Shown in pieces: positions 2,501-36,911 of a stretch of DNA of 64,000 nt. Position 1 is the stretch's first letter, and every line of letters begins with the position of its first letter. The position numbers and the translations under genes were made by a program. The DNA is from Longimicrobiales bacterium (GTDB lineage: Bacteria; Gemmatimonadota; Gemmatimonadetes; Longimicrobiales; Gaopeijiaceae), in assembly GCA_965218295.1 (NCBI GenBank), contig CBDCKN010000012.1:32001-96000 (forward strand), given 5' to 3'. The notes beneath the pieces are model-generated. The model saw only the letters and a program-made list of their open reading frames with translations. It did no database searches and was not told the origin of the DNA.

Positions 2501-4258
2501 ATGACGGACCAGAAGCGCAGACTAGCGGCAATCCTGAGCGCCGACGTTGTCGGGTATTCCCGGCTGATGGGCGATGACGAGGAAGCGACGATCGAAGTCC
2601 TCGTGGACTGTCGGGATGTGTTCAGCAAGCGTGTAGAGAACCACGACGGCAGGGTGGTCGACACGGCCGGTGACAGTGTTCTCAGCGTCTTCGATAGCGT
2701 GGTCGAGGCCGTCCGCTGTGCGATGGAGATTCAGATCGCGCTGTCTGAGCGGAACGAGGAACTCAGCGAGGATCGCAGAATGCGATTCCGCATCGGCATC
2801 AACCTGGGCGACATCATCGAAAAGGAAGACGGGACGGTCTATGGCGACGGCGTGAACGTCGCTGCTCGAATGGAGGCGTTGGCCGAACCCGGGGGCGTGA
2901 CCCTGTCGGACGACGCATACCGCCAGGTTCGCGCCAAGCTCGAGGTGACGTTCGAGGACATGGGTGATCAGGAGGTCAAGAACATCGCGGAGCGGATCCG
3001 CGCCTTCCGCCTAGTGGACTTCGACCGCACGCGAGCTGGGCCGGTCTCTCAGGCTCGGTTGGAGCTGCCGGACAAGCCGTCGATCGCGGTGCTGCCGTTT
3101 CAGAATCTGAGTGGCGACCCCGAGCAGGAGTACTTCTCGGACGGACTCACCGAGGACATCATCACGGATCTCTCGAAGCTATCCGGCCTATTCGTGATCG
3201 GTCGCAACTCGTCCTTCGCGTACAAGGGGAAGGCGGCGGACCTGACGAGGGTCGGAAGGGAGCTCGGCGTTCACTACGCGCTGGAGGGAAGTGTGCAAAA
3301 GGCCGGCAACCGCGTGCGCATCAACGCCAAGCTCGCCGATACCAGGAGCTCCCGCTATACGTCTGGGCCGAACGGTACGACGGGACCTCCGACGACATCT
3401 TCGCCCTGCAGGACGACATCACGGGAAAGATCGTGTCGGCCCTCTCCGTCCAGCTGACCGCAGCAGAGGAGAAACAGAGGGGAAGCGAGTACACGAGCAG
3501 CGTCGAAGCTTCATGATCTTTTCCTCAGAGCTCGAGTTCTGTACCGTCAACCCAGTCCGGTGACCAACGCCGAGGCACTCGCGATGTTCGATGCGGCCCT
3601 AGCCCTGGATCCAGGCTTCGCGCTGGCCTTGGCGTATCGCAGCTACGTGAAGCTCCATGCGTGGTTATTCGGCTGGAATACCGATCCTGACGCCTTGGAC
3701 TTGGCGATTCGGGACGCCGAAGCTTCCATCGCCCAGGATCCGAACCTGGCCATCGGGCACTCCTTCCTGGGCTGGATGCACATGTGGAAGGACGGGCATC
3801 AGCGCAGCCTCTCCGAACATGAACTGGCGCTAGCTCTCGACCCGAATTCCTCGGATGCCCAACTCTTCTATTCCTCAAGCCTCATCTTCAGCGGGCAGCC
3901 GGAGCTGGCGGAAGCGCCTATGATACATGCGCACCGCCTGGATCCGCACCTCTCGGCTCCGGCCCTGCTCAACTACGTCCACCTGTACCTCCAGACGGGG
4001 CGGTACGCGGAAGCCGAGCGTCATAGGGATGAGCTACTGGAAAAGGCGCCCGACTATCCCGCCGCTCATGTGTACGACGCAATGCTCCGAAACGCTTGCG
4101 GCGACCAGGAGGGCGTCCGGAGGTCCGGGGAAGAGATTGTCAGGTTGATGCCCGGGGCCACTGTGACCGCTCTCAGCCGGCAGTACCCTTACGCCAAGCC
4201 CGAGCAACAGGCCCGATTGCTTGAGGGTCTGCGGGCGGCCGGGCTACCCGAGTCCTAA
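2501..4258 (+). pseudogene. Class III adenylate/guanylate cyclase + TolB-N-like + TPR protein, split by two frameshifts (about 3350 and 3511)
   Basis: [27 protein letters not shown] and PSIAVLPFQNLSGDPEQEYFSDG motifs. WAERYD...DIFALQD lies in a second frame and the TPR region in ORF 3560-4258. The indels may be assembly errors. Confidence 0.85.
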
Positions 4259-4286: not shown

Positions 4287-7200
4287 TTACGCTCCGGAGA
4301 CCACATCCGTCGCCACCCGCACCAGCCCCGGATTCGCCCGGCGCTCCTCCTCGAACATGTTCCGGACGCAGACGGCGAAGTGCTGGCCTCCGGGAGCGGT
4401 CCCCGTGACCGCGAGTGGGATACGGATCTCGTCCCGCCCCTCGAAGTCCACGCTGAATCGCTTCACGAGCCCGCCGCCTCGCATCCAGGAGAGGCAAGCC
4501 GGCAGGTCGACGTGGACGAGGTCTCCGACCCGGTACCCGTCCTCGAGTCCGACCACCAGATCGACGCGCCACCCGGGCTGAAGGAGGCTCGGTCGCCGAT
4601 CCCCGTTCTCACGAAGGCCCACCCGGACCTCGAATCCAGCCCCGTACTCCTCCCAATCCTCCTCCCGAATGGCCAGCACCTGCACGGCGACGGTGCCTTC
4701 GATGGACTCGACCGACTCCGCACGATCTCCGAGGGCGATCGCTTCCCCTAGGTCCATCTCCTCACCGTTCACCCGCAGGCGCGCCTTGCTTGAGATCACG
4801 GACCGGATGCGCAGCTGGATCAGGAGGGCGATGGCCCCCACGGAGTCGACCGTCGAATAGAGGGCCCCGTTCTCCCCGAACTCTCCCACCACGACGTTGG
4901 CAGCCCTCAGCCCCCGGTCCACATCCCCGGCCGCGAGGAGACCCGCGGCGACGTATGCGAGCCCTGCGCGATTCGCCACCGCATGCCCACCACTCCGGAG
5001 GCGCACCTCGTTCCCAGAGAAATCCACGAAACGGTCGATAACGGTAAGCGCGTCTGAGCGATTTCCGCCGCCTACCAGAGCGGCGTAGGCGTCGTCCAGG
5101 GTGGCCGGCTTAGACGGGATCTTCTCGATACCGTGGAACGCGCCGGCGTCGTCCGCCATCTCGCTGCCTCTCTTCACCGCATCCCTGAGACCCGGCGAAA
5201 GGTCAGGGATCTCCGCGAGGCGATCGAGCTTCCATAGGTACCGGGCCGTGAGTTGGCTGTAGTGATCGCTCACCTGGCCGGACTCGGGGTACATGAGGAA
5301 CCCTGCTCCCGGCCGGAACATGCTCTCTTCCCGGGCGATGCCCTTACGGATGATGCCCTCGGCCTTGGACCTCCGCCCGTCGTCTCCGGAGGCGAGATAC
5401 ATCGCTACTGCCGACAGGATCTTGGCGGCTGTCTGCTCGCAGCAAAGGGGAGTATATGTGGCGGTGGTCTCGATCAGGAGGTCGAACGGCTCGTCCAGCC
5501 CGGGGAGGACCCGCAAGCTCACTGCGCCTGCGTCCTCCAGGGTGATGGACTCGCCCTCCGAAAGGAGAACGAGCTCCCGAGCGTGCGACCGGAGGCGGCC
5601 GGGCTCGGAAACCACGGCTTCCATCGAGTCGATCTCGCCCGACTCCGGATCCTCGACGCGTACCTCGTATGCCCCAGGAGCGACAGCGAACGTCAGGGCG
5701 GCCGGAGCCGAGATCTCTCCCTGCACCGTGGCGCCGTCTGCCGATCGAAGCTCGACTGCATCACCGTCACGAGTCAGGCTCACGAGCGCTCGCCCCGACG
5801 CCGTCGTCACACGGAGCCGACCGGTGACATCGTCGCCGGCGCGCACCATGGGTGGAATCTCCAGGTCTGCGCGCACGGGCAGGTCGATGACCAGATCACG
5901 GACTACGGCCCGCCAATCACCGGCATCGTAGGCGAAGGCCTCGATCAGGAAACTTCCCGTTCCGTCGCCCGTCCACACGGGGACCTCTGCGCGGCCCTCG
6001 ACCTCGACGAGGCCGACGAAGAGAACCGGCGGAAACTCGGCACGGGGCGGAGGCGCCTCCGCGTCCACCGGGATTCCCACGTCTTCCGTGTCCACGAACT
6101 CAAGGGCTTCGGCGGCCATTTCCTCGTGGAGCTCGGCCATCCCCCCCGCGGTTGGCTCTACGGCTGCCACGTAGACCACGGCGGGCTCGTCCGCACCCAG
6201 CTCGATCTCCAATCCGTCCTCCAGGTCCAAGAGGACGTCCATCATCTCGCCCTCGAAGATCCCGGATGGCATCGCCGAGGGAAAGAGCTGCTCCTGGAGA
6301 TCCAGCGGCTCGATCCCCCACTCCGCCATCCCCTCCGTGGCGGACTCGACCCCCCGCTTCAGAGAAGCCGCGAGGCCCGACGACGGCGTGTCGGTCCGCG
6401 TCAGGCGGCGATCCCGCACCGTAAGCAGCACCGGAACGGCTCGCTCCGCGTTCGTCTCGATCTCGAGCGTCACTTCCTCCCTGGGCCGGACCGTCTCGGG
6501 CGCCGACACCTCGACCTCCAGACGGCTCGGCCGCATGAAGGTCGTGAAGCCTTCGAAGGGCTTCCCGCCGACGATGCCTGCCGCCACGACCAGCATGAGG
6601 CCGGAAGGGTTGTCGAGAGGAATCGAATCACCGGCGGCGGCGTCGCCGTGCTCGATTACGTGAGCCTCGTCCCCGACGAGGTCGAACACGAGGAGATGGA
6701 GCTGAGAGGTATCCGCATGGACCTCGATCGCGGGCTCCTCGGTGAGAACCGACTCGACGGTGAGTGGAGTGGTGAGCCGATCTCCCTCCGTGAGGTGGCC
6801 ACCCCGCACGGGCATGGAAGAGGGCTCGGGAAGCAGAGAGAACATGAACTCCAACCCGAGCTCGTTGAGGACCGTGAGCTCACGCTCAGCCTGGCGGGTC
6901 CCCGGGATGGACACGGTGGCGATCCGACCGGGATCCGTCTCGACCCGGGCTTCGAGTCGGAAGGGCCCTTCGCCCTCCATCTTGAGGACACCCCGGTACC
7001 GACCTGGCGCTTCCGGACGCAGCACGGCCGAATCGACCGGACGATCGTCATCGAGCAGTGAGACCTCCAGACTCTCACCGCAGGGCTGCTGCCAGCTCTC
7101 CACCGAGAGTGCGAAGGAGAGCTGCCCGGCCTCACGGTCGGCCGCATGCTCGAGCAATCGAGCGCTCAGGGGGGCGAGTGAGAACTCGGCCACCGTGAAT

Positions 7201-7700
7201 TCCGCGCGAGCCCCAAGGCGGGCTCCGGCGACTTCCACGTAGGCGCAGTATTGCCCCGCAAGGAGCGCCGCGAGAGGGACGAGCTCCATCCCTTGATCGA
7301 GGGCGAGCTCCCGCTCCGCGAACGGCTGACCGTCGCACTCGACCACGAGCCTGGCGTCCGCAGGGGCGGAGGGCAGAACGACCAGGAGCTGGGCCGTGTC
7401 TTCCTCGGCCCGGTAGAGATCTCGATCCGCGACGACCGCGGCCAGCGGCTCCAGGTCCGCGCTCGAGGAGGTCAGCGTCATCCCCGGGAGGTGGACGGGT
7501 CCTGTGGAAATGGGGTACACGCGAAGGCGCTCCCCCGCCTCCGCGAGCTGAAGCCTCTTCTTTCGGGCGGAGGGCCAAATGCCGCTTCCCTTCATAGGCA
7601 TCTCCCTCACAAAGAGGAAGTGCCAGCCGGCCCAGACGTGGCCGTCGAATTTCTCGACGAGCTTCCGGTTCGTGATCTCGATTTCGATGGGGTACTTCAT
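4287..7700 (-). CDS. Alpha-2-macroglobulin-like thioester protein without signal peptide
   Basis: 1137-aa ORF with beta-rich MG-like segments, an acidic bait-like region before 'PRAEFPPVLF', a TYTPLCCEQT (CxEQ) motif at 5433-5444, then a helical TED-like region. Confidence 0.7.
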   Translation of the reverse strand: MKYPIEIEITNRKLVEKFDGHVWAGWHFLFVREMPMKGSGIWPSARKKRLQLAEAGERLRVYPISTGPVHLPGMTLTSSSADLEPLAAVVADRDLYRAEEDTAQLLVVLPSAPADARLVVECDGQPFAERELALDQGMELVPLAALLAGQYCAYVEVAGARLGARAEFTVAEFSLAPLSARLLEHAADREAGQLSFALSVESWQQPCGESLEVSLLDDDRPVDSAVLRPEAPGRYRGVLKMEGEGPFRLEARVETDPGRIATVSIPGTRQAERELTVLNELGLEFMFSLLPEPSSMPVRGGHLTEGDRLTTPLTVESVLTEEPAIEVHADTSQLHLLVFDLVGDEAHVIEHGDAAAGDSIPLDNPSGLMLVVAAGIVGGKPFEGFTTFMRPSRLEVEVSAPETVRPREEVTLEIETNAERAVPVLLTVRDRRLTRTDTPSSGLAASLKRGVESATEGMAEWGIEPLDLQEQLFPSAMPSGIFEGEMMDVLLDLEDGLEIELGADEPAVVYVAAVEPTAGGMAELHEEMAAEALEFVDTEDVGIPVDAEAPPPRAEFPPVLFVGLVEVEGRAEVPVWTGDGTGSFLIEAFAYDAGDWRAVVRDLVIDLPVRADLEIPPMVRAGDDVTGRLRVTTASGRALVSLTRDGDAVELRSADGATVQGEISAPAALTFAVAPGAYEVRVEDPESGEIDSMEAVVSEPGRLRSHARELVLLSEGESITLEDAGAVSLRVLPGLDEPFDLLIETTATYTPLCCEQTAAKILSAVAMYLASGDDGRRSKAEGIIRKGIAREESMFRPGAGFLMYPESGQVSDHYSQLTARYLWKLDRLAEIPDLSPGLRDAVKRGSEMADDAGAFHGIEKIPSKPATLDDAYAALVGGGNRSDALTVIDRFVDFSGNEVRLRSGGHAVANRAGLAYVAAGLLAAGDVDRGLRAANVVVGEFGENGALYSTVDSVGAIALLIQLRIRSVISSKARLRVNGEEMDLGEAIALGDRAESVESIEGTVAVQVLAIREEDWEEYGAGFEVRVGLRENGDRRPSLLQPGWRVDLVVGLEDGYRVGDLVHVDLPACLSWMRGGGLVKRFSVDFEGRDEIRIPLAVTGTAPGGQHFAVCVRNMFEEERRANPGLVRVATDVVSGA

Positions 7701-8371
7701 GGTATATCTCCCTGGTCTTGGCTCTCTATTTCCTGTTCGTTTTCCTGTTTGTCTTCCTGTTCGTTTTCCTGTTCGCTCCTGAGTGTCGCGGCCACCTCCT
7801 CGAGCGCTCGAGCGAGCGCTTCCCGTGCGGCCGGGTTCGCGACCGTCTCCGGTGGGACGTCCAGACTCGCCCCGCCGGGAAGCTCGACCCGCCGGACCGT
7901 CCGGCCCGCTAAGGGTCCCGGCGCCGGGGCGCCCATCGAGGCACGTGGCGGAGCTTCACTCGGCTCGGGCGGCAGGGTGATACCCTCCGCCCCGCCCTCA
8001 CTGGTCCGCGAGGGGTCCGAATCCTGACCGAGGAGGAGCCGGAGGACGGACCCATCGTCTGCACCCTCGAGCGTGCTGCTGATCCGCGTGAGCGTGTGAT
8101 GCTCCGTCTGGAGCTTCTTGATGAGAAGCAGCCTCATGAGGTGGGCGCCCCCGTAGCGGGCTCGCCCTCCCTCGTAGCCGCTCGCCCGGGGCAGAAGCCC
8201 TCGGGTGACGTAGTACCGGATCGTCCGGACGTCTGGACGGTCTGTGACCTTGTAGCGCGTTTGGCGGTCGGCGACTACGGGCAGCAGCCGATCAGCCTCG
8301 TCCACGAGGTCGTCGATCGTCATTCCCTGGCGGGACTGAAGCTCCTGAAGCACGTCGCGCAGCTCGTTCAT
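7697..8371 (-). CDS. MerR-like HTH transcriptional regulator
   Basis: MTIDDL...VRTIRYYVTRGLLP...ARYG..HL..L..IK.LQ pattern. ATGA overlap with the downstream gene. Confidence 0.82.
   Translation of the reverse strand: MNELRDVLQELQSRQGMTIDDLVDEADRLLPVVADRQTRYKVTDRPDVRTIRYYVTRGLLPRASGYEGGRARYGGAHLMRLLLIKKLQTEHHTLTRISSTLEGADDGSVLRLLLGQDSDPSRTSEGGAEGITLPPEPSEAPPRASMGAPAPGPLAGRTVRRVELPGGASLDVPPETVANPAAREALARALEEVAATLRSEQENEQEDKQENEQEIESQDQGDIP
7729..7774. repeat. 12-bp in-frame tandem repeat encoding QENE/QEDK at the regulator C-terminus
   Basis: ttcctgttcgtt / ttcctgtttgtc / ttcctgttcgtt / ttcctgttcg. Confidence 0.7.
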
Positions 8372-8377: not shown

Positions 8378-8406
8378 ATTATAGTATATAGTGTGAATAC
8401 TGTCAA
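8378..8406 (-). promoter_or_regulatory. Perfect-consensus sigma70 promoter, probably giving a leaderless mRNA
   Basis: TTGACA (8406-8401), 17 nt, TATAAT (8383-8378). ATG only 6 nt downstream with no RBS. Confidence 0.8.
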
Positions 8407-8547: not shown

Positions 8548-10833
8548 CTAGCGCCCTGCCCGGTCGGCCTCCTCCTCGGTCTCCACGAGTCGACCCGTGG
8601 TAAGCTCCAGCACCAACCTGTCGCTGTCGTAGATCTCGTCGAGGGCCTCCAGGATGGCACGCACGTCGACCGCGACGGACCGGTTCAGCTCCGGAAGGTA
8701 GATGTAGTCGCCCGGCAGGCTCTCGATGTTGCCGTCGAAGACCACGCCGACCACCTCGAGCTCCTGGTCCAGAACCGGCGCACCGGAGTTGCCGCCGATG
8801 ATGTCGGCGGTCGAGACGAAGTTGATCGGCGTCGAGAGATCGAGCGTCTCCCGCGTGTCCAGCCAGCGGTCCGGGAGTGCCCAGTCATCGTCACCCGCGT
8901 GCGAGTAGTGGCGGTCGTACAGGCCGTAGATCGTGGTGAACGCCGGCGCCCGGGTGCCGTTGTAGTCGTATCCGGTCACGACCCCGTCGGCGATCCTGAG
9001 CGAGAAGGTCGCGTCGGGCGGCTCATCGGTCCCGTAGATCTCGAAGCGGGCCCGACCCAGCTCGGCAGCGATCTCCTCCTCCTGCGGGAAGACAGACGCG
9101 ACGATCTGCTGGAACTGGGCGAAGGTAGGCAGATAGGCGCGCACGATCCCGAGCGCGGGGTCGGCCATGGTCAACGTGTTGTTCTCGATCGCGGCGGCCG
9201 CGGCCGCCGAGTCTTGGAGCTGCGACCCACTGACCACGGCAGCGGCCCGGGCCTCGACGCTCATGCCCTGCAGCACTGCCGTGGAGAGCGGTGAGCGGTC
9301 ACCGTAGGAGTGCGTGAAGTCGTGGAACCGTGCCTCGACGAAGGCCTGGTCGAGCTGGGGAGCCTGATCTGGGACGCCTTGCAGCCGCTCCATGAGGCTT
9401 TCGATCGCCTCGGCGGGAGCGCCCCTCTGTCGTGCGCTCAGGATCTGAAAGGCGATGAGGGCGCGATGCAGCGTGGACGACGCCATATCGGGACTCGACA
9501 GCGCGAGGAAGGCGCCGAAGCCGGGCGCCTGTGCGCGCTTCTGATCCTGTTGCTCGGCCATATCGGCGATCAGCGATCCGTAACGGCCAGAGAGCGCCGG
9601 ATCGGCGTCGATCGCCGCCTGGAAGTCCCGTTCGGTGTCCTTGCGGCGCGCAATGATGATCGGGTCCTCGAGGCCGCGCACTTGCCCCGTATACGCCTTC
9701 AAGGAGTTCGACAAGCTGAAATACGTATTCCTGAGATCTCGCTCCTCGGCGTCCTCCGGAAACTCCTTGATGTATGAGTCGAGGGCCTCCATCCGGGAGC
9801 GCAGCAGGTCGAGGATCGCGCGGTCGTTCACGTCTCGGCGGAACTCGAGCTCGGCCACGGTTTGGAGTCGGCTGGTCGAGCCGGGATTGCCGACGATGAA
9901 GATGGGATCGCCCTCCTCCAGACCGTCGTCGTCGAATTGGAAGTAGTTCTCGGTCGACAGCGGCTGCCCGTCGTCGTCATAAATGCGGAAGAAGGAGAAG
10001 TCGAGGTTGTAGCGGGGGTAGGTGAAGTTGTCGAGGTCGCCACCGAAGAATCCGATCTGCAGTTCGGGCACGATGACGAGCTTCGCGTTCGTGTAGCGGC
10101 GGAAGACATACGCGGACGTGCGCCCGCCGTTGTACAGCGAGATCATCTCGACCACGTGCCCGGAGTCCTCACCACCCCGCTCCTCCAAGATACGCGCCTC
10201 GATCTCTTCGAGGAGGCTCTCGCGCCGCTCCACCCGCTGCGCGGCAGGAAGCGCGTCCAGCGTCGAGTTCACCTCGTCGGTGGCGTCGACGATGTCGACG
10301 AGCTGGTCGGCCTGGAAGTCTTCCAGGAACCGCTCGTCGGCGAGATCCCGCGTCACCAGGCCGTCGTCGAGAAGCGACTCCCCGTCGCCCGAGACCTGCG
10401 AGACGAACTCGCGCGCGCAGTGGTGGTTGGACAGGACGAGTCCGTTCGGAGAGACGAAGGAAGCCGAGCAGTTCGAGAGACGCAGCGAGCCGAGTCGGGC
10501 CTTCTCGAACCATGCGTCGTCCGGACGGAATCCGTACGTCTCCTCGAGGTAGTCGACCGGGGGAAGCTCGAAGGTCCACATCTTCCCCTGGTCGAAGCGG
10601 CTGGCCTGGACCGTGTCGAGGTCGACCCCGTACACGAAGGGCTGAGGCTTGGCGGTCTGAGGCGGAGCTTCGGCAACCACCTCCGCCGATCGGTCCGCAG
10701 GATCGGGGTCGACTACCGGTGCCGGCGGGGGAGCCGGTGTGGCGGCCCCACCGCAGGCGGCCATGAAGAGAACTCCGCCGAGGCAGGTCAGGACACGCGA
10801 ACGCTCACCCAAAGTACCCATCGACTCCATCAT
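8548..10833 (-). CDS. S46 family dipeptidyl peptidase, probable lipoprotein
   Basis: GKMWTF, CSASFVSPNGLVLSNHHC, FFGGDLDNFTYPRY and DIIGGNSG motifs. Lipobox MAAC. Confidence 0.93.
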   Translation of the reverse strand: MMESMGTLGERSRVLTCLGGVLFMAACGGAATPAPPPAPVVDPDPADRSAEVVAEAPPQTAKPQPFVYGVDLDTVQASRFDQGKMWTFELPPVDYLEETYGFRPDDAWFEKARLGSLRLSNCSASFVSPNGLVLSNHHCAREFVSQVSGDGESLLDDGLVTRDLADERFLEDFQADQLVDIVDATDEVNSTLDALPAAQRVERRESLLEEIEARILEERGGEDSGHVVEMISLYNGGRTSAYVFRRYTNAKLVIVPELQIGFFGGDLDNFTYPRYNLDFSFFRIYDDDGQPLSTENYFQFDDDGLEEGDPIFIVGNPGSTSRLQTVAELEFRRDVNDRAILDLLRSRMEALDSYIKEFPEDAEERDLRNTYFSLSNSLKAYTGQVRGLEDPIIIARRKDTERDFQAAIDADPALSGRYGSLIADMAEQQDQKRAQAPGFGAFLALSSPDMASSTLHRALIAFQILSARQRGAPAEAIESLMERLQGVPDQAPQLDQAFVEARFHDFTHSYGDRSPLSTAVLQGMSVEARAAAVVSGSQLQDSAAAAAAIENNTLTMADPALGIVRAYLPTFAQFQQIVASVFPQEEEIAAELGRARFEIYGTDEPPDATFSLRIADGVVTGYDYNGTRAPAFTTIYGLYDRHYSHAGDDDWALPDRWLDTRETLDLSTPINFVSTADIIGGNSGAPVLDQELEVVGVVFDGNIESLPGDYIYLPELNRSVAVDVRAILEALDEIYDSDRLVLELTTGRLVETEEEADRAGR

Positions 10834-12676: not shown

Positions 12677-13912
12677 TCACCATACATGGTTCCACATTCG
12701 TTCAGAGATGGGGCTGGCCCCCCCACGACCGAGCATTCCCCCGCAACTGTAGGTCAGCGTGAGATCACCGCTGATCTTGTTCCCGACCACCCAATTCTCA
12801 CTACCAAAAGGATTGGGGTCGTCTCGGCAGATCAGTTGGCCGAACATCACGGGCTTGCCGGAGACTTCGCATTGGGAGCCGGCGTAGACCAGCCCCTCGA
12901 AGTTCTGCTCGCCTCCCGACGGGCTTCCGTTCAGCTTCACGTCTCCCTCGGCCACGATGAGAATGCTGTCCGAGTGGGCCGGGACCATGTAGGGATCCCC
13001 CGGAATCGTTACCGACTTGGTCGTCAGGATCGTGATGGCCAGGGGAGTGCTGGGCGAGCCGAGTTGGCTCGTCATCTCTGCGTTGCCGTCCATGCAATAG
13101 ACGCCGGGCGCGACGTTGTCGTTGTCCGTCGTGTACGTGCCTCCGCTCCACTTCCAACCCCACCAAGTTCCGGTCGCGAGGTTTCTGGTGGTCATGGTGG
13201 CGACCTGGGTACCCAAATTGCCGGCGAAGATGTAATCCGCTTCGCCGCAATAGTCGTCGGGATCGAGATCGGGGATGGGCAGCTCGGGCGCGTCGGACGT
13301 TGGAGTGACCGGGTTCCATAGCATGTCCTGCAATGTGCCCCCAACCGATGCCGTGCCGGAGCTACTCACGTTGCCGTCTACGGCTACCGTCGAGGTCCCG
13401 CTAATATCGAGGTCGCCGTTGGAGTGGATATTCGGGCACTGCCCTTTGATGGTCGGGTTGCTTGACAGCGCCGCGTCACCTCCGAAGACGAGGGCGGCAG
13501 CGAGCCCGACCCTGCTCCTTACGATGATGCCGATCCGGCGCCTTCCCCCGTTGAGCCCAGGGCTCCGAGCTGTGGACTCGACGGTGTAGAGCTTGTCGGA
13601 CGCGTCACCACCGTCGATGCGGCGGTATACGAGCTGGTAGCTACAGCGGTTCTCGATCGTCGTCCACGACCCCACGAGGCTGTCTCCCGGGCCGGCCATC
13701 AACGTGTCCATGGCCGGCTGGTCCCAGTTCGAAACAGCGCTGTGGATGCCCGCTTCGGCGGCGTAGAACGCCTGATTGGAGTGGGTCACGGCCTCTGCCG
13801 AGAGGATCTCGTCGCGGGAGCTCTGGAGCGCCGCGCCGCCAATCATGCCCAGCAGCACCAGCGCGAAGACCGCAATCGGCAGGGCGAAACCCGCGTCGCG
13901 GGTCCGGACCAT
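12677..13912 (-). CDS. PilX-like type IV pilus minor pilin
   Basis: GFALPIAVFALVLL...AFYAAEAG PilX N-terminal signature. Confidence 0.8.
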   Translation of the reverse strand: MVRTRDAGFALPIAVFALVLLGMIGGAALQSSRDEILSAEAVTHSNQAFYAAEAGIHSAVSNWDQPAMDTLMAGPGDSLVGSWTTIENRCSYQLVYRRIDGGDASDKLYTVESTARSPGLNGGRRRIGIIVRSRVGLAAALVFGGDAALSSNPTIKGQCPNIHSNGDLDISGTSTVAVDGNVSSSGTASVGGTLQDMLWNPVTPTSDAPELPIPDLDPDDYCGEADYIFAGNLGTQVATMTTRNLATGTWWGWKWSGGTYTTDNDNVAPGVYCMDGNAEMTSQLGSPSTPLAITILTTKSVTIPGDPYMVPAHSDSILIVAEGDVKLNGSPSGGEQNFEGLVYAGSQCEVSGKPVMFGQLICRDDPNPFGSENWVVGNKISGDLTLTYSCGGMLGRGGASPISERMWNHVW

Positions 13913-14034
13913 CGGGGTGTCCGTGAGGCCGGCGGCCGGCTCGCCGCCGCTCTTGGAGGAGGCTCTGTGAGGAGGCTCTGTAATGTATCCACGTGGTGCG
14001 GGGTCTCGGCATCTGCTCTATTCTCCTGAACACT

Positions 14035-14898
14035 CTAGTTGTTGCGCAGGCTCACCGTGAGGCGGAGCGTGTCCGCGAGGTTACCCGAGCTCACGTAGGC
14101 GGACAGGTCCTCACGGCTCTCGGCCTTGAGGAGGATCTCGACGGTGGCGACGTCCGACGGCGTGGCGGTCACGGCGCCATTCACGTCGTAGTAGTGGAAG
14201 ACCAACCCGCTGTCGGCGGGACTCATGAGCGGGCCGGCCAGCCTCTCCGGATCGATGGCTCCCGAGACTCTCTGCACCAGCCAGTATCTCCCGCTCACCT
14301 CCTCGAGACCGAACTGGACCGGGTGGAAGGCGCGGATGGGCGAGCCCACCAAGAGGCTGTCGATGATGGTTGGCGCGCCCGCCAGGTCGATGGCGACCTC
14401 AGGGTTGGGCGCGCTGGTCGTGTCGCTCCAGAAGCAGTCTGGAGTCTTGGTGGCCAATCCCGATGTCGTGGTATCCGTGGCCGCCACCGTTACGATGTTC
14501 CAATCGTCGTTCTGAATGGAGTAGATCAGCACACTGTCGCTTGCGGTGAACTGTCCGGATACGTCGTGAATGCCCAGCCACTGGGTGCTCGTGGAGCAGA
14601 TGATCCCGCCGGCGTGGACCGCCCTCATGGTTACACTGTTCGTACCGAGGGTCGTCAGGTCGCCCCCCGTGGCGGACACTTCCTGGATGGCCCACGACAG
14701 CATGCTGGCTCCCGTACGTAGGCTTACCTGAGTTCCCAGCTTGGCGCTTTGCACGGTATACAGGGCCACCTGAGAACTGAGGATCGCGAACGCCCCGGCC
14801 GCGAGCAGACTGGCCACCGCTAGTGTGACTAGCAACTCCACCAATGTGAATCCTCCAACGCCGGCGGGGATCACTGAACGATGTCGGGTGGCGCTCAT
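14035..14898 (-). CDS. PilW-like prepilin
   Basis: GFTLVELLV class III signal peptide. Confidence 0.8.
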   Translation of the reverse strand: MSATRHRSVIPAGVGGFTLVELLVTLAVASLLAAGAFAILSSQVALYTVQSAKLGTQVSLRTGASMLSWAIQEVSATGGDLTTLGTNSVTMRAVHAGGIICSTSTQWLGIHDVSGQFTASDSVLIYSIQNDDWNIVTVAATDTTTSGLATKTPDCFWSDTTSAPNPEVAIDLAGAPTIIDSLLVGSPIRAFHPVQFGLEEVSGRYWLVQRVSGAIDPERLAGPLMSPADSGLVFHYYDVNGAVTATPSDVATVEILLKAESREDLSAYVSSGNLADTLRLTVSLRNN

Positions 14899-15269
14899 TA
14901 GTTCTCAATATCAGCGGCGTAGGTTACGAAGGTGTCCACCGTCATGCCGCCGAGAACGGAGGGACGTTCTATGGCGAGGACGACGACCTTGGGCGCCGTA
15001 CCCGAGACCGTCCAGCTGATCGGAAATCCCCACACCGTGTCCGAGCCCGAATCGACGCTGTCGTACGGAAGCGAGCGCAGCGTCTCCATCTGGTACTGCG
15101 CCACCGCCGCCGCCTCGGTGATGATCTCTCCGGCCTTGGCCTGTTGCCTGGCCACGAGCGTGTACTGGGCGGCGGCAAGGGCTCCGATCGTGAAAACGAG
15201 CAAGGCGATCAGCACCTCCACGATGGAGACACCAGCCTCGGGCCCCGACGTCCTCGTGCGGGTACTCAT
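14898..15269 (-). CDS. PilV-like prepilin
   Basis: GVSIVEVLIALLVF signal. ATG 15269 overlaps the upstream stop (ATGA). Confidence 0.8.
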   Translation of the reverse strand: MSTRTRTSGPEAGVSIVEVLIALLVFTIGALAAAQYTLVARQQAKAGEIITEAAAVAQYQMETLRSLPYDSVDSGSDTVWGFPISWTVSGTAPKVVVLAIERPSVLGGMTVDTFVTYAADIEN

Positions 15270-15757
15270 GGAGAGGCCTTGAACAGCAGCCCCGACGCGG
15301 TTGCGCTCATCGAGTCCGACGAGCTTCCACGGGAGAATGCGATAGCGAGAGATCCCTGAGTCGGACATCCAGCAGCGGCGGCGATGAGTCCCCGCGGGTC
15401 GAAGCAAAGCAAAGACCTGGTGGCCCTCAAGTCCACCTGGTTCTCGCTCAAGTCGACAACGCGGCCTATGGTATCCATGATGCCGGAGCCGGAGGCCGTC
15501 GTATCGATCTGGACCCAGAACCGATCCGTGGAAGCGTCGATATGAAGTTCGGCTACAGCGCCGAATCGCACCGCCGTAGTGCGCGCCTTCTGATGCGCCG
15601 ACGTGAACTGATCGGCAGCCCCCCTTGTCGCAAACTGGTCCCAGGCATCCGTCCGACGAAGGGTGATTCCAGCCAGGAGCCCGACAACACTGATCACGAT
15701 CATCAACTCCAGGAGGGTGAATCCAGACTGCTTCATGCGCTTCTGCCGCCTTTTCAT
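15266..15757 (-). CDS. FimT/GspH-like prepilin
   Basis: MKRRQKRMKQSGFTLLELMIV signal and C-terminal FDPRG motif. Start uncertain. Confidence 0.8.
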   Translation of the reverse strand: MKRRQKRMKQSGFTLLELMIVISVVGLLAGITLRRTDAWDQFATRGAADQFTSAHQKARTTAVRFGAVAELHIDASTDRFWVQIDTTASGSGIMDTIGRVVDLSENQVDLRATRSLLCFDPRGLIAAAAGCPTQGSLAIAFSRGSSSDSMSATASGLLFKASP

Positions 15758-16023
15758 CTTCGTCCTACTTTTTTTGGACCGATCGGATGTCGAGTTGAAC
15801 TCCTTACCGAGATCGACACTCATATCCGTTCGTTCGCAGAGCCGATGGGGGGGCTCGGCGGACTATTCGCGAGATCCGTGCCATGTGGAAAACTCGATCC
15901 CTACGGCCTTTTGCCCTGGAATCGCCCCATTATCGAGCAAACTTTTCCCCGGCACCGGGAAAAGTATCCCGTCAAGAGAGATCATCTTCGGCCTCCGAAC
16001 CTCGCCGAGCTGCTCGCCGGAGA

Positions 16024-16372: not shown

Positions 16373-16446
<74 letters not shown>

Positions 16447-16454
16447 GACAACGG

Positions 16455-16831
<377 letters not shown>

Positions 16832-16944
16832 CCTACGAGCCAGTGCGGACGAAAGAGCCGGCGCCGAAGCGTCGGATCTCGAACCGCGTAGGCACGTTCT
16901 AACTCTAAACGCAACCGCGATTTGGAACAACGACCGACCAGTGA

Positions 16945-18564: not shown

Positions 18565-19374
18565 CTAAGGAATGACGGGCAGCAGGGCGCCGGAGTCCAG
18601 CAGGTCCTGGGCTATCGTCGCGTCGAGGGCGAAGACGACCACGAACCCTCCGACGCCAATGATCAAGGCGAACATGAATACGGTGTAGGATATCCGTAGG
18701 AGGTTGAACTTCTTCTTGAGCACCTGACCGAGCCCGTACAGATCCCTCACCATGTTGATGTAGAGGTGGTCCGGCGTCATCATCAGGTCACGCATTCCCT
18801 CCACAAAGTCTTCTTCCGACAGGTTCACGAAGTTCCCGAAGAACAGGATATTGGCGTCGTTTCGCTCGATGTCGTCCAGCGTCAGCGGCTGGTTGCTCAC
18901 CCCGGGGCGTGCGGCCAGAACCGCGTAGACGAGCGCTATGAGGCACCCCACGAGCAGGATGCTGACAGGCAGGACGAGGAGCGGCAGGCCTCCCATGCGG
19001 GGCGCCAAGGCCGCGAGCGTGATGGAGATGATCAGTCCGTTCACGCTGATCATGATGTTCGCCTTGGCGTCGGCCAGGCCGACCAGATCCTGGTGGACGC
19101 GGTAGCTGGTCCGGAACATCGTCTCGATGCCACGGGACGTGCCGAGGCCCGTGGGCTTCTTTTTCTTCTTCTTGCCCTTCTTGCCGTCGTCGGCCTCGCC
19201 CGCCCCCGCGTCGGCGTCAGCTTCCTGTGCCTCGCCCGTCGCTGAGACTTCGGCTTCGGTGACCCCGAGATGGGGGTCATCGGCTCCCGCCACGGACCCG
19301 GTGCCGCCAACCTCAGCCGTCTCGTCGTCTACGGCTTCCGCAACGTCTCTCGGTTCGTTCTGGTCTACGTCCAT
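18565..19374 (-). CDS. DUF5706 ('Pycsar effector family') membrane protein with acidic N-terminal tail
   Basis: RGIETMFRT...LADAKANIMISVN...LFFGNF...DLYGLGQVL.KK..LLRISY pattern. Three TM segments. Confidence 0.82.
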   Translation of the reverse strand: MDVDQNEPRDVAEAVDDETAEVGGTGSVAGADDPHLGVTEAEVSATGEAQEADADAGAGEADDGKKGKKKKKKPTGLGTSRGIETMFRTSYRVHQDLVGLADAKANIMISVNGLIISITLAALAPRMGGLPLLVLPVSILLVGCLIALVYAVLAARPGVSNQPLTLDDIERNDANILFFGNFVNLSEEDFVEGMRDLMMTPDHLYINMVRDLYGLGQVLKKKFNLLRISYTVFMFALIIGVGGFVVVFALDATIAQDLLDSGALLPVIP

Positions 19375-19390
19375 GCGCTCTCACCCTGGG

Positions 19391-21538
19391 TCAACTGGCC
19401 CGGACCTTTCCCAACAGTTCTTCCAAGTACCGGTACGTGTCAATCTGGCTGCGCACGGAGGGGTTATCGTCGGCCGTCACGAACCGGTTGCTCTGGTCTC
19501 CGTCAAGGATGCGGGCCTTGGTGTTGTCGGCGAGCTGGAGCACCAGAACATGCCGAAGCTCGGCCCTGAGGTCGGGATCGTAGATGGGAAACGCCACCTC
19601 CACCCTTCGGTTCAGGTTCCGAGTCATCCAGTCGGCCGATGCCAGGTACAACGCCTCGGCCCCTCCCGCGTGGAAGAGGTACATCCGCGAGTGCTCCAGG
19701 AATCGGTCCAGGATGCTTCGGCCCTCTATGGTCTCGCTCAGCTCGTGTACCCCCGGCCGGAGGCAGCAGATGCCTCGTATCACGAGTTGAATCGGGACAC
19801 CGGCGGCGCTGGCTTCGTAGAGCCGGTCGATGATCCCGCGGTCCTGGAGGCTGTTCATCTTGGCTGTGATCCCAGAGGCCCGCCCCGCTCGGGCCGCCTC
19901 GATCTCGGCATCGATGAGCGAGTTGAAGCGGTCCCTGAGGTCGGAGGGGGCCACCAGCAAATGCTCGAAGGCCGGCTCGACCTCCTCTCCACCGAGGATG
20001 CGGAACACCCGGTACACCTCTTCGGTGAGCCTCTCGTCGGCGGTTAGCAGACCGTGATCGGCGTAGATCCGGGCCGTCTTCTCGTTGAAGTTGCCCGTGG
20101 CCAGGAAGGCGTAAAGCCTGCTCGCGTCGCCTTCGCGCCGACGGATGAGCGCGAGCTTGGCGTGCACCTTGATCCCCTTCCGGCCGTAGAGCGTGCGCAC
20201 GCCGGCCCGCTCCATCTGCTCGGCCCACTCCAGGTTCAGCTCTTCGTCGAAGCGGGCCTGCACCTCCACGAAGGCCGACACCTCCTTTCCGTTCCGGGCT
20301 GCCTCGATGAGGGCTTTGACGACGGCCGAGTCCTGTGCGACCCGATACAGCGAGATCCAGATGGCGTCCACGTCGGGGTCGCCGGCGGCCTCCTCGAGGA
20401 GGCGCACCACGTAGCCGTACGACTGGTAGGGAAAGTGGAGCAGCCGGTCCTTCTCCGAGACCACGTCGAAGAGATCCGGGGCGCCCTCGAGCGCCGGGTG
20501 TGCCAGGGGCTGGAGCGGGGGATCCTGGTGCTCGGGGGCCTCGCCCACAGGGAGCCCGAACAGGTCGTGCAGGTTGTGGTAACGCCCGCCCAGGATCAGG
20601 TCCTCTTCCTGGAGGCCGAGGCAGGCCTTCAGGCGGTTCACCATGACGTGAGGCGATCGCATGTCGTAGAGGAAGCGGATCGGGATCCCTGTATCGCGCT
20701 TCTTCAGGCTCTTCTTTATGGCCTGCTTGAGTCCGTGGTCGAACTCGTCGTCGAGGTAGAGGTCGGCGTCCCTGGAGACCTTGACCGCATACGCGCCCGC
20801 CGCGACCTGGCCGGGGAAGACGCGCGGAAGGTTATGCCGGATGACGTCGTCCAGGAATACGACGTAACGCCGGTCACCTGGGGCCGGGATGTCGATGAAC
20901 CGTGAGAGGGGCGGGCTGGGAACCTTCACCAGTCCCAACCTCGGCCCAGCGGACCCCACGGCGATGTCCTGGACCGGCTGGAGCTCCACCACCAGATAGA
21001 CCGTCTGATCCTTCAGGAACATCGGCTCTCCGACGTCCTCCAGATAGCTAGGCTCCAGGAGTGGCTCGACGTGCTCGATGAAGTAGTCCTCCAGAGTCGA
21101 GCGGTACTCATCGGGCACTGCGAGCTCATCGACGAGGTCGATCCCGGCCTCGCTCAGCCCCGGGAGGATCTGCTCGCGGAAGACGCGCCCGAATCGCTCC
21201 TGATGCGCAAGCGCGACCTCGGGGATCTCACGGAGCAGCCTGGTGGGATCCAAGCGGCGTTTCTTGCCCTTCTTCTTCTTGAGCGAAAGGAGGCTCCGGA
21301 GGGACGCCACACGCACTCGGAAGAACTCGTCCAGGTTGGACGAGAAGATGGCGAGGAACTTGAGGCGCTCGAAGAGAGGCACCGCCGGGCTTTCGGCCTC
21401 CTGAAGCACCCGTTCGTTGAAGGACAGCCAGCTCAGCCCCCGGTTGACGTAGCGCACCTCGGTGGAGGAGACGCCCAGCGCGGCCTCACTAGGATCCTCC
21501 TGCGCCTCGATGACGACAGGACTCGTGCTCTCAGCCAC
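19391..21538 (-). CDS. ppk1: Polyphosphate kinase 1
   Basis: NRGLSWLSFNERVL, SNLDEFFRVRVA, LLHFPY, ARFDEE, KVHAK, TGNFN, RFLEH and SADWMTRNL motifs. GTG 21538 taken as the likely start. Confidence 0.95.
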   Translation of the reverse strand: MAESTSPVVIEAQEDPSEAALGVSSTEVRYVNRGLSWLSFNERVLQEAESPAVPLFERLKFLAIFSSNLDEFFRVRVASLRSLLSLKKKKGKKRRLDPTRLLREIPEVALAHQERFGRVFREQILPGLSEAGIDLVDELAVPDEYRSTLEDYFIEHVEPLLEPSYLEDVGEPMFLKDQTVYLVVELQPVQDIAVGSAGPRLGLVKVPSPPLSRFIDIPAPGDRRYVVFLDDVIRHNLPRVFPGQVAAGAYAVKVSRDADLYLDDEFDHGLKQAIKKSLKKRDTGIPIRFLYDMRSPHVMVNRLKACLGLQEEDLILGGRYHNLHDLFGLPVGEAPEHQDPPLQPLAHPALEGAPDLFDVVSEKDRLLHFPYQSYGYVVRLLEEAAGDPDVDAIWISLYRVAQDSAVVKALIEAARNGKEVSAFVEVQARFDEELNLEWAEQMERAGVRTLYGRKGIKVHAKLALIRRREGDASRLYAFLATGNFNEKTARIYADHGLLTADERLTEEVYRVFRILGGEEVEPAFEHLLVAPSDLRDRFNSLIDAEIEAARAGRASGITAKMNSLQDRGIIDRLYEASAAGVPIQLVIRGICCLRPGVHELSETIEGRSILDRFLEHSRMYLFHAGGAEALYLASADWMTRNLNRRVEVAFPIYDPDLRAELRHVLVLQLADNTKARILDGDQSNRFVTADDNPSVRSQIDTYRYLEELLGKVRAS

Positions 21539-21540
21539 GG

Positions 21541-24231
21541 TCAGAATGAGAAGCCGAGGCCGACGAGCAGTCTCGTCGAGTCGTCGGAGTCCGCAAAGGT
21601 CACCGAGATCAACGGTGTGTGCTGCCTGAGGAAGGAGAACCAGAGACCTCCACCGTACGCCCAATGCCACAGGTCCGAGTCCTCGCCCTCCAGGTACACC
21701 CGTCCCACGTCGGTCATGGCATGGACTCCGAACTGGCCCGGCAGGACACTGCTCAGCGCCCCCAGACGGAGCCGTAGCTCGCTCTTCGCGAAGATCATGG
21801 CGTCGCCGGCGTAACGGTCGTCGTGCGTGCCCCGGAAGGTCTCGGCCCCGCCCAGATAGGCGGCACTGAGGTAGGGATAGTCTCCCCACACCTTCTTACC
21901 CCCGACCTTGAGAGCGAGCACGGGAGACATGGGCATGGGCGCCTGGAGGAAGACCTCCACCGAACCGGCCAGCGTCCCGTAGTCCGACCTGAGCTCCGTG
22001 AACTCAGGGAAGTATGTGGCCTCGATCTCGATCCGGGCGCCTCTCGTCGGGAACCAGTCGTGGTCTCGGCCATCCCACTCCATCCCCGTCTTGATTCCGA
22101 ACTGGAAGAGGTCGGAGAAGCCGTAGGGGTTCTCCTGGGCGATGAGGCGTCCCCTGTTCTTCGACTGCGAGTGCAGATCCAGCTCGAACAACGCGCCGCT
22201 GGTGATGACGAAGTCGTCGCCGGACATCCACTGAAGCTCCGACTCCAGCGTCAAGATCTGGCGATCGACCCGGAAGAAGTCGAGCCCGAAATCCGACCTC
22301 GTCGTCTCGTTCCCGAAGCCGAAAAAGCGGTAGCGGTCGGCCCCTGGTACCGAGCCCTCACCTCCCCCCTGAGACGACCCAGGGGGAAGTTCGTCCGGAG
22401 CTCGAGGAGCGGGAGCTGGGTTGCCGTCCCGATTCCCGCAGTGAATCCAAAGGCGGTGCGGTACGGGTAGTGACGGAAGCCGAACCCGTGCCGGGTGGCG
22501 CCCATCTGGACGTAGGCGCCCTTCCTTCCGCCGACCTCGAAGATGGGGAAGTAGGCCCAGACATGACCCCAATCCTGCGGGCGAGCCCCATAGCTCTCGA
22601 CCACGTCGGGGGCCCGGTAGTCGTACTCGTGGACCTTAGTGTTGCGCCCCTTGGTGATCTCGTTGTTGCCGCGGTCGTCGTGGAAGTGCACGCGGCCCGA
22701 GCCGGTGGTCTCGTCGATGAGGACGTCGGCGCGGCCACCCCCGATGATGCGCACGGTCACCCGGCCCGACGCGTCTCCTCGTACGACGGCCCGATCCTGC
22801 TCTCCCAGCAGGTAGACGCGAACGTCGTCGGTCTCCGAGCCGAGGAAGGTGCGGTCGTACCGGGCCTCGCCCCTGGGCTCCTCCTCGCTGTTCTTCTCCC
22901 AGAGCCGAACCCTTACCCGGTCACCCTCCAGCCATTCGACCAGGGCGTACTCCTCCTCGTCGGTCCCGAAAACGTCCACGTTCCGGGCCAGGAGGTCGTA
23001 GAAGTCCCGGGCCTGGACCATGAGGTTGTCACGCCGCAGGGTGAGGGCCCGCGTCATGAAGTCTCCGACCCGATCGTAGTAGGCCGGTGGGAGTCGCCCC
23101 ACGGCGTCCCGGATGACCGCGTCGCTCAAACGGCGCTGGAGGTCTGAGGCGATGGCTTCCCAGGTGCTCCACTCGAGACCGGTGAGGAACTGCCGGTCCA
23201 GCGCCCGGCCCGACCACGTGATCGCCAGGGCCGAAGGGTACTCCTCCTCGAAGCCCACCAGGTGCGGAGCGACGCCGGGGGCGACACTCCGGAACCAGCG
23301 CAGTATAAGACCGTCCAGCTTGGTCAGGGCCCAGTCCCGGTCTCGCGGGACCGGCCTGAAGACCAGGAAGTCACCATCATCGAACCCGGCCCACCGCCAC
23401 TGATCGGGATGCCTGTCCCAATCTCCCACGAACATGTCCATCAACCGGGCCCGCAGGAAATCCTCCGCGTCGACCCGGTCGTCCGGATCTTCTTCGAGGC
23501 GCTCGAAGAGCCGCTCCGAGCCGATGACCCGGGTGGAGCCAGCGAAGCCGGGCTCGCCGTCGGGCCCCTCGTCGGGCCGCTCTTCGATGAATCCCAGGAG
23601 TCCGGCGAACTCATCCTGGAACTCGCCGAGTCGGGGATCGTCGGGCATGACAACTAGCGTGGGATCGGGATGAAGGAGGTCTGCGGCCCCGAGGAGGGGG
23701 GCCACCACGATGGCCGCCATGGGAAAGATGGCCGAGATCTGGTCTTGCTGTGCCCAGGCCACGAAGGTCTCCCGCAACAGTGGGTCCACCCCGGGCCGCG
23801 TCCTTGTCGATGGAGCGGAAGTTGTAAAGGACGCCATCCTCTCCCCTCATCCTCAAAGACGACGTCTGCTTGCCGCCGCCCCGCCGCACCACGGTGAGCC
23901 CCCCGGCGTACTGGTCGAGGTCGAGCACCTGCGTCTTCACCTGGACCCGCCAGAGCTCCCGCCAGCCCCGACCCATCATGGCCGCGCGCAACGGATGCGC
24001 GTCGTAGCTCATCCGCGGTCCGGCGAGGACCGAGTCGCCCCCCTGGGGAGTCTGCGCCGACCCGACCGTCGGCGAAGCGAGGGCGGCCATGCAAAGCAGC
24101 CCGAGCCCCACCACCTCCCTCCGAAGCCCTTGCCCCGAAGGCGTCCAAGACCCATCGCGGCGACGGCGATGTCGCGCACACGAGGGCCGCGCGGGCTCCA
24201 CCCGGATGCGGGCCGACGGCGGATCGATCAT
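21541..24231 (-). CDS. Outer-membrane protein with a kinase-like passenger (GGGKQT...DWDRHPDQW) and BamA/TamA-type C-terminal barrel; two frameshifts (about 23790 and 22342)
   Basis: Three overlapping ORFs (23611-24360, 22251-23837, 21541-22572) join at G-runs. The barrel has an FRG...RY.G motif and ends in GLGFSF. Start uncertain. Confidence 0.75.
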
Positions 24232-30309: not shown

Positions 30310-30630
30310 GGCCGCACTCCGGGATCAGATGTGGTCAATGTCCTATGAGGGGGCCGGTAGGCGCAAGGAGAGCCCGTTCAGACGCCTGCAAACACGTCCT
30401 GAGCGTCTTCGGACTTCTTCGGGTTTCGTGCCCACGTGTGGCGCGGAGGCGACTGCGCAACGCCACGGCTTCAGTCTGCGGGTGGCGCGCCACCTCTGGT
30501 TTGCTTACGACGTTGAAGCAGGTAGCTCGCGAAAGAACCCAGTCCGCTGAACTTGTATTGGCCATCGACGTATTTCTCGATGACATAGAACGGAACCTGT
30601 CAACGCCAGTGAGACACTCTTGGAAATCAA

Positions 30631-31638: not shown

Positions 31639-32084
31639 GAGTTCGTCCCGTCCTCGAGGCTCAATCCCAGCAGCCCTGCAACTTTTCCCTGGACGTCGAT
31701 GATCAAGTGCGCCTTCTGGAGCTCCTTCTCGAGGCGAGTGTTCTCGCGCTCCAGCTTGCGCACCTTCTCCTCCAGCGGATTGCGCTCGCGCTTACGGCCT
31801 CGTTTCTTCGACAGCGCTTTCAGGGACCCGCTATGCGCCGCCTTGCGCCATGTCGTCAGGTGCGACGAGTACAAGCCCTCCCGCCGTAGGAGTCGGCCAA
31901 CCTCTCCGGGCTCCGTGCACCGGTCCGCTTCTTCGACGATCCGCAGCTTGTACGACGGAGCGAACCGCCGGCGCAGCGGCCTATCTACCACCTCCGAGTC
32001 CGCAGGAGCTGCCGCGCTTCGCTTACCGTCCCAGGTTGGTGGGGCTATTCCATTCTCTTTCATTCTCTCTCGGTGTCTCAGCAT
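31635..32084 (-). CDS. IS3-family OrfA (HTH + coiled coil)
   Basis: RRRF..YK.RIVEEA...LLRREGLYSSHLTTWR. ATGA overlap with orfB. Confidence 0.88.
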   Translation of the reverse strand: MLRHRERMKENGIAPPTWDGKRSAAAPADSEVVDRPLRRRFAPSYKLRIVEEADRCTEPGEVGRLLRREGLYSSHLTTWRKAAHSGSLKALSKKRGRKRERNPLEEKVRKLERENTRLEKELQKAHLIIDVQGKVAGLLGLSLEDGTNS

Positions 32085-32863: not shown

Positions 32864-33240
32864 ATGATTAGAGCCGCGCGGATTCTCGGACTTATTGCGG
32901 CGGTCACGATTCTGGGTGGCTGCGATCTGATCACGAACTCGGATGAATCCAGCGTGACGCTGTCGGGCACGGTGACTCGCGGGGGTGAGCCAATTTCGTT
33001 CGTCCGGGTCACGCTCTGGCCGCCCGCAAGAGGGTATTGTGGTCTCCTCTGTGGAGCCAGAGTGCTTTACGAGGGACGGTCACTAATCAGGACGGTTTTT
33101 AGGCTATCAACGCGGTCATCCCCCCTGACGAGTGTCGAGACGCCTTCGTTAGCATTTCTGGCCTTGATACGCCCACCGTGAGCGTGCCCCTTCGCGGATG
33201 CGGAGTGCGCACCATCGACTACGATTTCCCACCGGGCTAG
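32864..33240 (+). pseudogene. Degraded lipoprotein gene
   Basis: MIRAARILGLIAAVTILGGC lipobox. The apparent continuation is in another frame near 33070 and contains an internal stop. Confidence 0.5.
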
Positions 33241-33253
33241 CGTGGGAGGCACC

Positions 33254-33643: not shown

Positions 33644-33683
33644 CGGAACCTGTCAACGCCAGTGAGACACTCTTGGAAATCAA

Positions 33684-36895: not shown

Positions 36896-36911
36896 TTTAA
36901 GGCGGAATTAT

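Follow-up and report, generated by a model that had tools for sequence, protein, structure and literature searches.

Do bacteria keep a thioester-armed protease trap of the alpha-2-macroglobulin (A2M) kind inside the cell? In the literature surveyed, bacterial A2Ms are periplasmic and fall into two types. The question is raised by a two-gene module on the minus strand, at 4287-8371, of the 64,000-nt stretch of contig CBDCKN010000012.1 analysed here, which we call the window; all module coordinates below lie on that strand. The module encodes a compact protein of 1137 residues (P0001, 4287..7700), in which no export signal is evident, and a MerR-like helix-turn-helix (HTH) protein of 224 residues (P0002, 7697..8371). 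By motif, profile and predicted fold, the large protein is a member of a divergent, widespread family within the A2M/complement superfamily. With modest confidence, we favour the reading that it is an intracellular, bait-triggered covalent protease trap with a CxEQ thioester motif, placed under a MerR-like repressor that acts on the shared promoter.

Assignment to the A2M superfamily

As a single query P0001 gives no significant match in Pfam, NCBIfam or PDB, and the assignment therefore rests on the family profile and on a structural model. A phmmer search over 50%-identity representatives found 516 homologues at E 0.001, the best 150 of which were returned, and a word-based search found 42. 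Counts out of 150 refer to an alignment set of 150 mostly full-length proteins out of 184, and counts out of 80 to the loci kept from a genome scan with 83 relatives. The Pfam A2M family scores above its cut-off in several homologues, databases automatically label a few members as A2M-domain proteins, and the whole protein finds A2M families in the ESM Atlas with values of 0.94-0.96, whereas residues 1-90 give only leads under 0.9.

By profile comparison and, in its C-terminal part, by the model described below, the large protein is colinear with canonical A2Ms, in the order macroglobulin (MG) domains, bait, MG domains, CUB, thioester domain (TED) and C-terminal MG domain, the MG ring being assigned by profile evidence only. 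An N-terminal module and MG domains make up residues 1-447 (6360..7700), a bait-like variable region residues 448-557 (6030..6359), and the post-bait MG domains, which are the Pfam A2M region in homologues, with the first part of a CUB-like connector residues 558-735 (5496..6029). The segment PRAEFPPVLF comes after the bait, where the initial annotation had placed it. The predicted TED, an alpha/alpha barrel of 11 helices that is shorter than C3d, spans residues ~736-965 (4806..5495), and is followed by the second CUB part and the C-terminal MG domain (4314..4805).

The CCEQ variant of CxEQ noticed in the initial annotation lies at residues 753-756, within the motif YTPLCCEQT (residues 749-757, 5430..5456), and the family form of this motif, YxHxCCEQT, aligns in register with YPYGCLEQT of the E. 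coli protein ECAM. CxEQ is intact in 141/150 homologues, while Tyr749, the motif Glu and Gln and a Met-aromatic pair are conserved as strongly as the motif Cys. The pair belongs to RNMF (residues 1113-1116, 4353..4364), with Met in 144/150 and Phe or Tyr in 147/150 at residues 1115 and 1116; judged by conservation, RNMF is the likely counterpart of the thioester-protecting ExMY, although a match to EAMY is obtained only by forced alignment. Type I A2Ms are characterised by a Tyr/Tyr/Met/Tyr pocket and by ExMY and RDDR motifs (PMC4498604). Residue 790 of the window protein is a conserved Arg, and Cys1111 is conserved in 113/150 homologues. The nine members without an intact CxEQ (e.g. CCVQ, CCQQ, CCHQ) are possibly thioester-less forms. 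Contigs from public runs of two studies match the large gene across the thioester motif and reproduce its sequence, and thus the gene is not an assembly artefact.

By sequence alone the TED is weakly recognised (TED_complement in 7/66 members at E 0.1), and the profile match of the C-terminal domain is not significant. An AlphaFold model limited to residues 732-1137 (406 residues, predicted local distance difference test score 93.6) consists of the thioester barrel, CUB and the C-terminal domain, and aligns end to end with native CD109, C3 and A2M. The alignments to native (closed) forms cover 361-377 of the 406 modelled residues, with 10-16% identity to the animal thioester proteins, and the fit to C3/C5/TEP1 is as good as that to A2M. 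The predicted arrangement is the closed one, with CUB and the C-terminal MG domain packed against the TED in the manner of native thioester proteins. The claim of an A2M-like thioester protein with a conserved motif is therefore upheld by motif, profile and model, and the alpha/alpha barrel expected around CCEQ is present in the prediction.

Export signal and cellular location

The absence of a signal peptide and lipobox from the 1137-residue reading frame was borne out, since no lipobox, Tat motif or hydrophobic N-terminus is found in it. An upstream start that would add a signal peptide was considered and rejected, because the frame upstream of M1, although open for 85 codons, has no ATG, GTG or TTG and no hydrophobic run. 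The 150 family proteins likewise show neither a lipobox nor a Tat motif. A first hydrophobicity heuristic flagged 22/69 loci, 21 of them through a conserved GxxFxF strand, and a stricter version was used instead; over all possible starts it flags 7/69 loci with a 5' end, six via the conserved internal strand, and it flags 12/12 canonical A2M controls. Homologues with signal peptides from an upstream start are thus not indicated. The canonical A2M profile (1861 positions) is matched from position 567, the query from residue 48, and the ~560 N-terminal profile positions, which are anchor-bearing in canonical bacterial A2Ms, are lost in the family.

The lack of an adjacent pbpC gene also holds beyond this locus: the PBP1c profile matches at 0/80 family loci (74 with at least 1 kb downstream) versus 12/12 canonical A2M control loci, and the host genome (90.7% complete) has neither a PBP1c above cut-off nor a PF00207 match. 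No secretion gene recurs near family loci. A stronger argument than the signal heuristic comes from the domains that family members carry in their baits and N-termini. These domains, FHA and MshEN among them, are known from cytoplasmic proteins, and their presence lends indirect support to the cytoplasmic location proposed earlier, so that the large protein is probably cytoplasmic.

Bait region and inserted domains

The bait is the most variable part of the protein: its conservation is 0.19 versus 0.44-0.55 in the core segments, its length across the family ranges from 72 to 347 residues, and the ratio of nonsynonymous to synonymous substitution rates against the nearest ortholog is 0.66 (an alignment-sensitive value), compared with 0.16-0.19 in the core segments, which are under purifying selection. 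The acidity ascribed to it is real in this protein (Asp plus Glu 25%, versus 16% in the rest) and was rejected as a family feature, the family median being 15% and only 8/149 members reaching 25%.

A folded domain sits inside the bait in 30/150 homologues (MshEN in 22, FHA in 8), and the remaining 120, the window's own protein included, have neither insert. The bait of P0097 comprises MshEN and the start of a secretion ATPase, and P0097 is the only member in which the canonical cyclic di-GMP motif is found by pattern. The N-termini of homologues carry FHA (4), MshEN (1), a kinase (P0106), ankyrin repeats, Cys-pair ribbons or a MerR HTH. An insert of at least 80 residues near residue 345 occurs in 46 homologues and is TPR-like in the members scanned.

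The MerR-like regulator and its promoter

The small reading frame matches MerR_1 with 40.6 bits (cut-off 21.6) and is a MerR-like HTH protein, as annotated, with the HTH at residues 48-102, a variable linker and a small conserved C-terminal domain at residues 155-200. Its stop codon and the ATG of the large gene share the sequence ATGA, in agreement with the proposed translational coupling, and GGGAGA, resembling a ribosome-binding site, lies 6 nt before the large-gene ATG (7707..7712). A consensus sigma-70 promoter, TTGACA-17-TATAAT (8378..8406, 12/12 matches; 1 found versus 0.3 expected in shuffles), precedes the small gene, whose ATG lies 6 nt after the -10 box, and the mRNA is predicted to be leaderless. 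An operator-like site over the -35 box (8387..8406) corresponds to the family palindrome TTGACAGTANNTACTGTCAA, with its left half intact and its right half degenerate (5 mismatches).

This palindrome is found upstream at up to 4 mismatches in 10/12 genome loci, in the family relative L120 and in 17/19 metagenome loci with upstream DNA, and elsewhere in the scanned loci only three sites with 4 mismatches occur; no full palindrome at up to 4 mismatches, and hence no sign of a wider regulon, was found in the host genome. The left arm of the palindrome coincides with the -35 box; at a spacing of 17 bp comes a -10-like hexamer, from which the start codon is usually 6-10 nt away. Classical MerR activators work by twist activation at promoters with an over-long spacer of 19-20 bp. 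Here and in relatives the spacer is 17 bp, and because the site covers the -35 box of a normally spaced promoter, it points to autorepression rather than to classical twist activation. The MerR-like protein thus likely represses its own shared promoter.

The MerR-like gene stands directly upstream in 12/80 loci (62 loci have at least 700 bp upstream) and 0.1-2.5 kb upstream in six Chloroflexota loci, and besides generic kinases it is the only neighbour that recurs across phyla. In a reciprocal comparison an A2M-like gene follows 17/20 close metagenome MerR homologues with downstream DNA, a set that includes near-duplicates and two truncated downstream genes. Five proteins, which form a separate clade (P0148, P0174, P0176, P0180, P0182), are fusions of the HTH with an A2M-like protein. 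In a 78-sequence FastTree tree the 12 adjacent cases and the query share one clade of 24 tips (support 1.0), which also includes members without a MerR-like gene, and the fused and Chloroflexota cases stand on other branches. Two of the five fused members additionally carry a T5orf172/MUG113-like domain; the fused members sit on contigs of 21-131 kb, and searches for them in IMG/VR and INPHARED gave no match.

A sister MerR-like gene (metagenome loci L144-L164) overlaps a VIT-vWA (ITIH-like) gene in 20/20 loci with room, behind a predicted leaderless promoter with ACACTGT direct repeats over the spacer and -10 box. The VIT-vWA identity was confirmed by Pfam in four of these loci, which look like one lineage. 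Two families of the host phylum abound in more distant MerR-like homologues (108/125 and 69/69). Among 28 of them from the host phylum (L171-L198) a vWA gene comes next in only five; lemA-like, serA-like and other genes occupy that position in the rest. ITIH4 is a bait-type inhibitor (PMC7793589). A regulator family dedicated to bait-and-trap inhibitors was rejected on these counts and on the apparently single lineage of the sister loci, and the link of the sister regulator to ITIH-like genes is suggestive, not specific, and stands as a weak lead.

Distribution and strain variation

The 80 loci belong to at least 11 phyla: Myxococcota (22), Pseudomonadota (15, ten of them Thiotrichales), Obscuribacterales (12), Chloroflexota (7), Acidobacteriota (5) and others. 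Only three of 40 relatives of the host match, all within its own family (3/24), and one of these is a 30-codon remnant; the closest named relative is 93% identical. In the congener G002 (L119, 5591-7147) all that is left is the regulator end and a 30-codon piece from the start of the large gene, and an insertion of ~1.3 kb splits these remains. In a tally of 301 genomes 202 gave some match and only G000 and G005 scored high; it includes one unpublished genome, G192, on which none of our other claims depends. No relative carried by phages or plasmids was found in IMG/VR or INPHARED (query P0182) or in PLSDB (query P0001).

In this strain Pro751 is a strain allele for the conserved His, shared with one other cluster member. 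A sequencing error was rejected as its source, since contigs of the public runs X1, X4 and, in another study, X2 carry Pro, and those of X5 carry His. Repression and thioester protection may both be weaker in this strain as a result of the half-degenerate operator and of Pro751.

Single protease genes occur on the same strand near individual family loci: a caspase-like gene below cut-off (L068, 6326-7534), a C1-like peptidase (L032, 6073-7722), Lon (L029, 5051-7459) and ClpP (L061, 11783-12463).

Other features of the window

Beyond the 3' end of the module an adenylate/guanylate cyclase-TPR gene (2501-4258, plus strand) is split into two reading frames; runs X1 and X4 agree with the window here, run X2 is 2 bases shorter near 3356, and this break is therefore strain-variable. 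Directly upstream of the module promoter lies an S46 family peptidase gene (8548-10833, minus), which is not there in the nearest relative, L001. A pilin-like gene cluster (12677-15823, minus), has N-terminal methylation-type motifs recognised by eye. The RNase P RNA with an adjacent tRNA lies at 16373-16833 (minus) and a second tRNA at 51720-51793 (minus). The gene content between the module and the RNase P RNA differs from L001. At 18565-21889 (minus) there are a polyphosphate kinase and then a membrane protein with a PycTM (Pycsar effector) domain. The region 30588-47295 is rich in insertion sequences, with an integrase-core element in three copies, two identical Mutator transposases and a TPR-S domain gene (40266-41108).

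Discussion

The family shares with Type I A2Ms (E. coli YfhM/ECAM, Salmonella SaA2M) the colinear domain order, CxEQ in a Y-x-x-x-C-x-E-Q-T context and the likely Met-aromatic pocket pair. It differs from them in many respects: its members have ~1100-1350 residues, compared with ~1600 in the Type I PDB chains (E. coli, Salmonella) and 1811-1977 in 12 same-phylum controls, they have a shorter TED and a His and a second Cys in the motif, and they have folded cytoplasmic domains in the bait and a MerR-like regulator of their own. The export signal and anchor (by the heuristic), the pbpC operon and the full set of ten MG domains, including the N-terminal anchoring ones, by which Type I is recognised, are missing. 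Type II is represented by Pseudomonas MagD, which has an A2M fold with a bait and no pbpC in common with the family, and which is described as periplasmic, encoded in the six-gene mag operon and without CxEQ (PMC5764988); the family keeps CxEQ and has no recurrent operon. Animal CD109, A2ML1, A2M, TEP1 and C3/C4/C5 are the best structural matches of the C-terminal 406 residues and are similar in overall length. However, they are secreted or surface-bound, the family motif context resembles that of bacterial A2Ms, and a match of predicted folds gives no proof of closer kinship to the animal proteins. BldC-type MerR-like regulators share with P0002 a MerR-type HTH and repeated sites over the promoter (PMC5859096); here, in contrast, the repeat is inverted and lies over the -35 box, and a long variable linker and a small C-terminal domain are present. 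With classical MerR activators the protein shares the MerR-type HTH and not the promoter spacing. In the literature surveyed we found no signal-less bacterial A2M and no A2M-MerR pair, though a mention in Budd 2004, Garcia-Ferrer 2015, Wong and Dessen 2014 or in supplements is possible.

From this architecture, motif and gene context we infer a chemistry, a target and a signal as follows. Once folded in the cytoplasm, the large protein would hold a buried thioester, predicted between Cys753 and Gln756, and a protease, the presumed target, would cut the exposed variable bait. In Type I A2Ms bait cleavage leads to TED release and acylation of the protease (PMC4498604, PMC5764988). By analogy with this biochemistry, cleavage would free the TED from the C-terminal domain and expose the thioester, which would acylate a lysine of the protease. 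FHA, MshEN or TPR inserts could act as decoys or localisers and in this way influence the choice of protease that the trap encounters. The HTH protein would bind the palindrome, block RNA polymerase and keep the operon low until an inducing signal arrives, and the HTH fusions suggest that the trap itself may be the sensor. A bolder form of the proposal, which we regard as unlikely, is an intracellular "complement": a third thioester class with host signalling domains (FHA, MshEN, the N-terminal part of a secretion ATPase) in the bait as decoys, which would covalently capture the injected, phage or runaway host protease that attacks them and report to its own promoter via a docked or fused HTH, combining sensor, trap and switch in a single module.

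Several observations weigh against an intracellular protease trap under a MerR-like repressor. On the side of the thioester, the second motif Cys (Cys754), near-invariant in the family (146/150), sets the motif apart from that of Type I A2Ms, the second pocket Tyr is His in 134/150 and Pro in this strain, the RDDR motif is not recognisable in the family, and the residue-level alignment to canonical A2Ms is forced. AlphaFold gives no evidence on bond formation, and the closed pose may echo training structures. Since this strain has Pro at position 751 and a congener has lost most of the module, the copy in the window may be defective, which makes a relative with His preferable for testing. The export-signal heuristic is crude compared with SignalP. 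No protease neighbour recurs among the 95 neighbours scanned, and a folded bait domain could equally be a binding trigger as a protease decoy. As to regulation, a MerR-like gene was not found at 62/80 loci, all 12 adjacent cases are confined to one clade, and the palindrome was counted in the very loci that had supplied its consensus, several of them near-duplicates. The control by the MerR-like protein that had been proposed has indirect support and is confined to part of the family.

The protein could instead be a complement-like covalent tag, in which a ligand or cleavage at the bait (phospho-Thr via FHA, a partner or cyclic di-GMP via MshEN) sets off the thioester against proteins or surfaces in the vicinity; its reactivity could be tuned by the His that stands two positions ahead of the Cys. 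The folded signalling domains in 30/150 baits, the kinase fusion P0106, eight adjacent Ser/Thr kinases at seven loci (five Obscuribacterales), the equally good fit of the model to C3/C5/TEP1 and a smaller MG ring that may cage a protease poorly all agree with such a tag. However, 120/150 baits, the window's included, lack these domains, the canonical cyclic di-GMP motif is confined to P0097, and kinases are common in the lineages concerned; we consider the tag improbable, if worth keeping in mind. Action outside the cytoplasm, after lysis, in vesicles or by signal-independent secretion, where the protein would inhibit proteases as a public good of biofilms or filaments, would agree with the periplasmic or extracellular place of the characterised A2Ms in the surveyed literature and with the many social or filamentous hosts (Myxococcota 22, Thiotrichales 10 of 80). 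Cytosolic thiols and amines would also threaten a thioester. The DNA-binding HTH fused in five proteins, the FHA, kinase and MshEN fusions and the lack of a recurrent secretion gene nearby make this distinctly unlikely.

The possible anti-phage function raised in the initial annotation, as a dedicated module trapping a phage protease or virion protein, draws on the patchy presence in the host family, the horizontal-looking spread across phyla, the fast evolution of the bait and the T5orf172-like domain in two fused members. Yet neither protein has a match in PADLOC 2.0 at E 1e-20, the 89 immediate neighbours yield one AbiEii, one HEAT-repeat and one GlgB-like protein besides the eight kinases, the neighbours are mostly housekeeping genes, and the module has only one to two genes; with no support from PADLOC, the neighbourhood or the phage and plasmid searches, we judge this function very unlikely. 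Finally, there may be no thioester at all, and the vicinal Cys pair with His may provide an A2M scaffold with a site for redox chemistry, metals or electrophiles, under the kind of regulation seen in stress genes. The conservation of Cys754, of the His at -2 and of Cys1111 and the nine members without an intact CxEQ fit such a site, but conservation of the motif Glu and Gln, of Tyr749 and of the Met-aromatic pair equals that of the Cys, and the model retains the closed domain arrangement, for which reasons we hold this alternative to be the least likely of the four.

If the covalent protease trap is true, the family is a widespread third type of bacterial A2M, thioester-motif-bearing and cytoplasmic, which extends trap chemistry to a new compartment and bears on the origin of the A2M/complement superfamily. 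The protein is predicted to be soluble and has ~120 kDa, and a self-labelling trap would itself reveal what it captures in nature. Its compact scaffold, and the natural baits into which folded domains have been swapped, would also be useful for protease capture tools.

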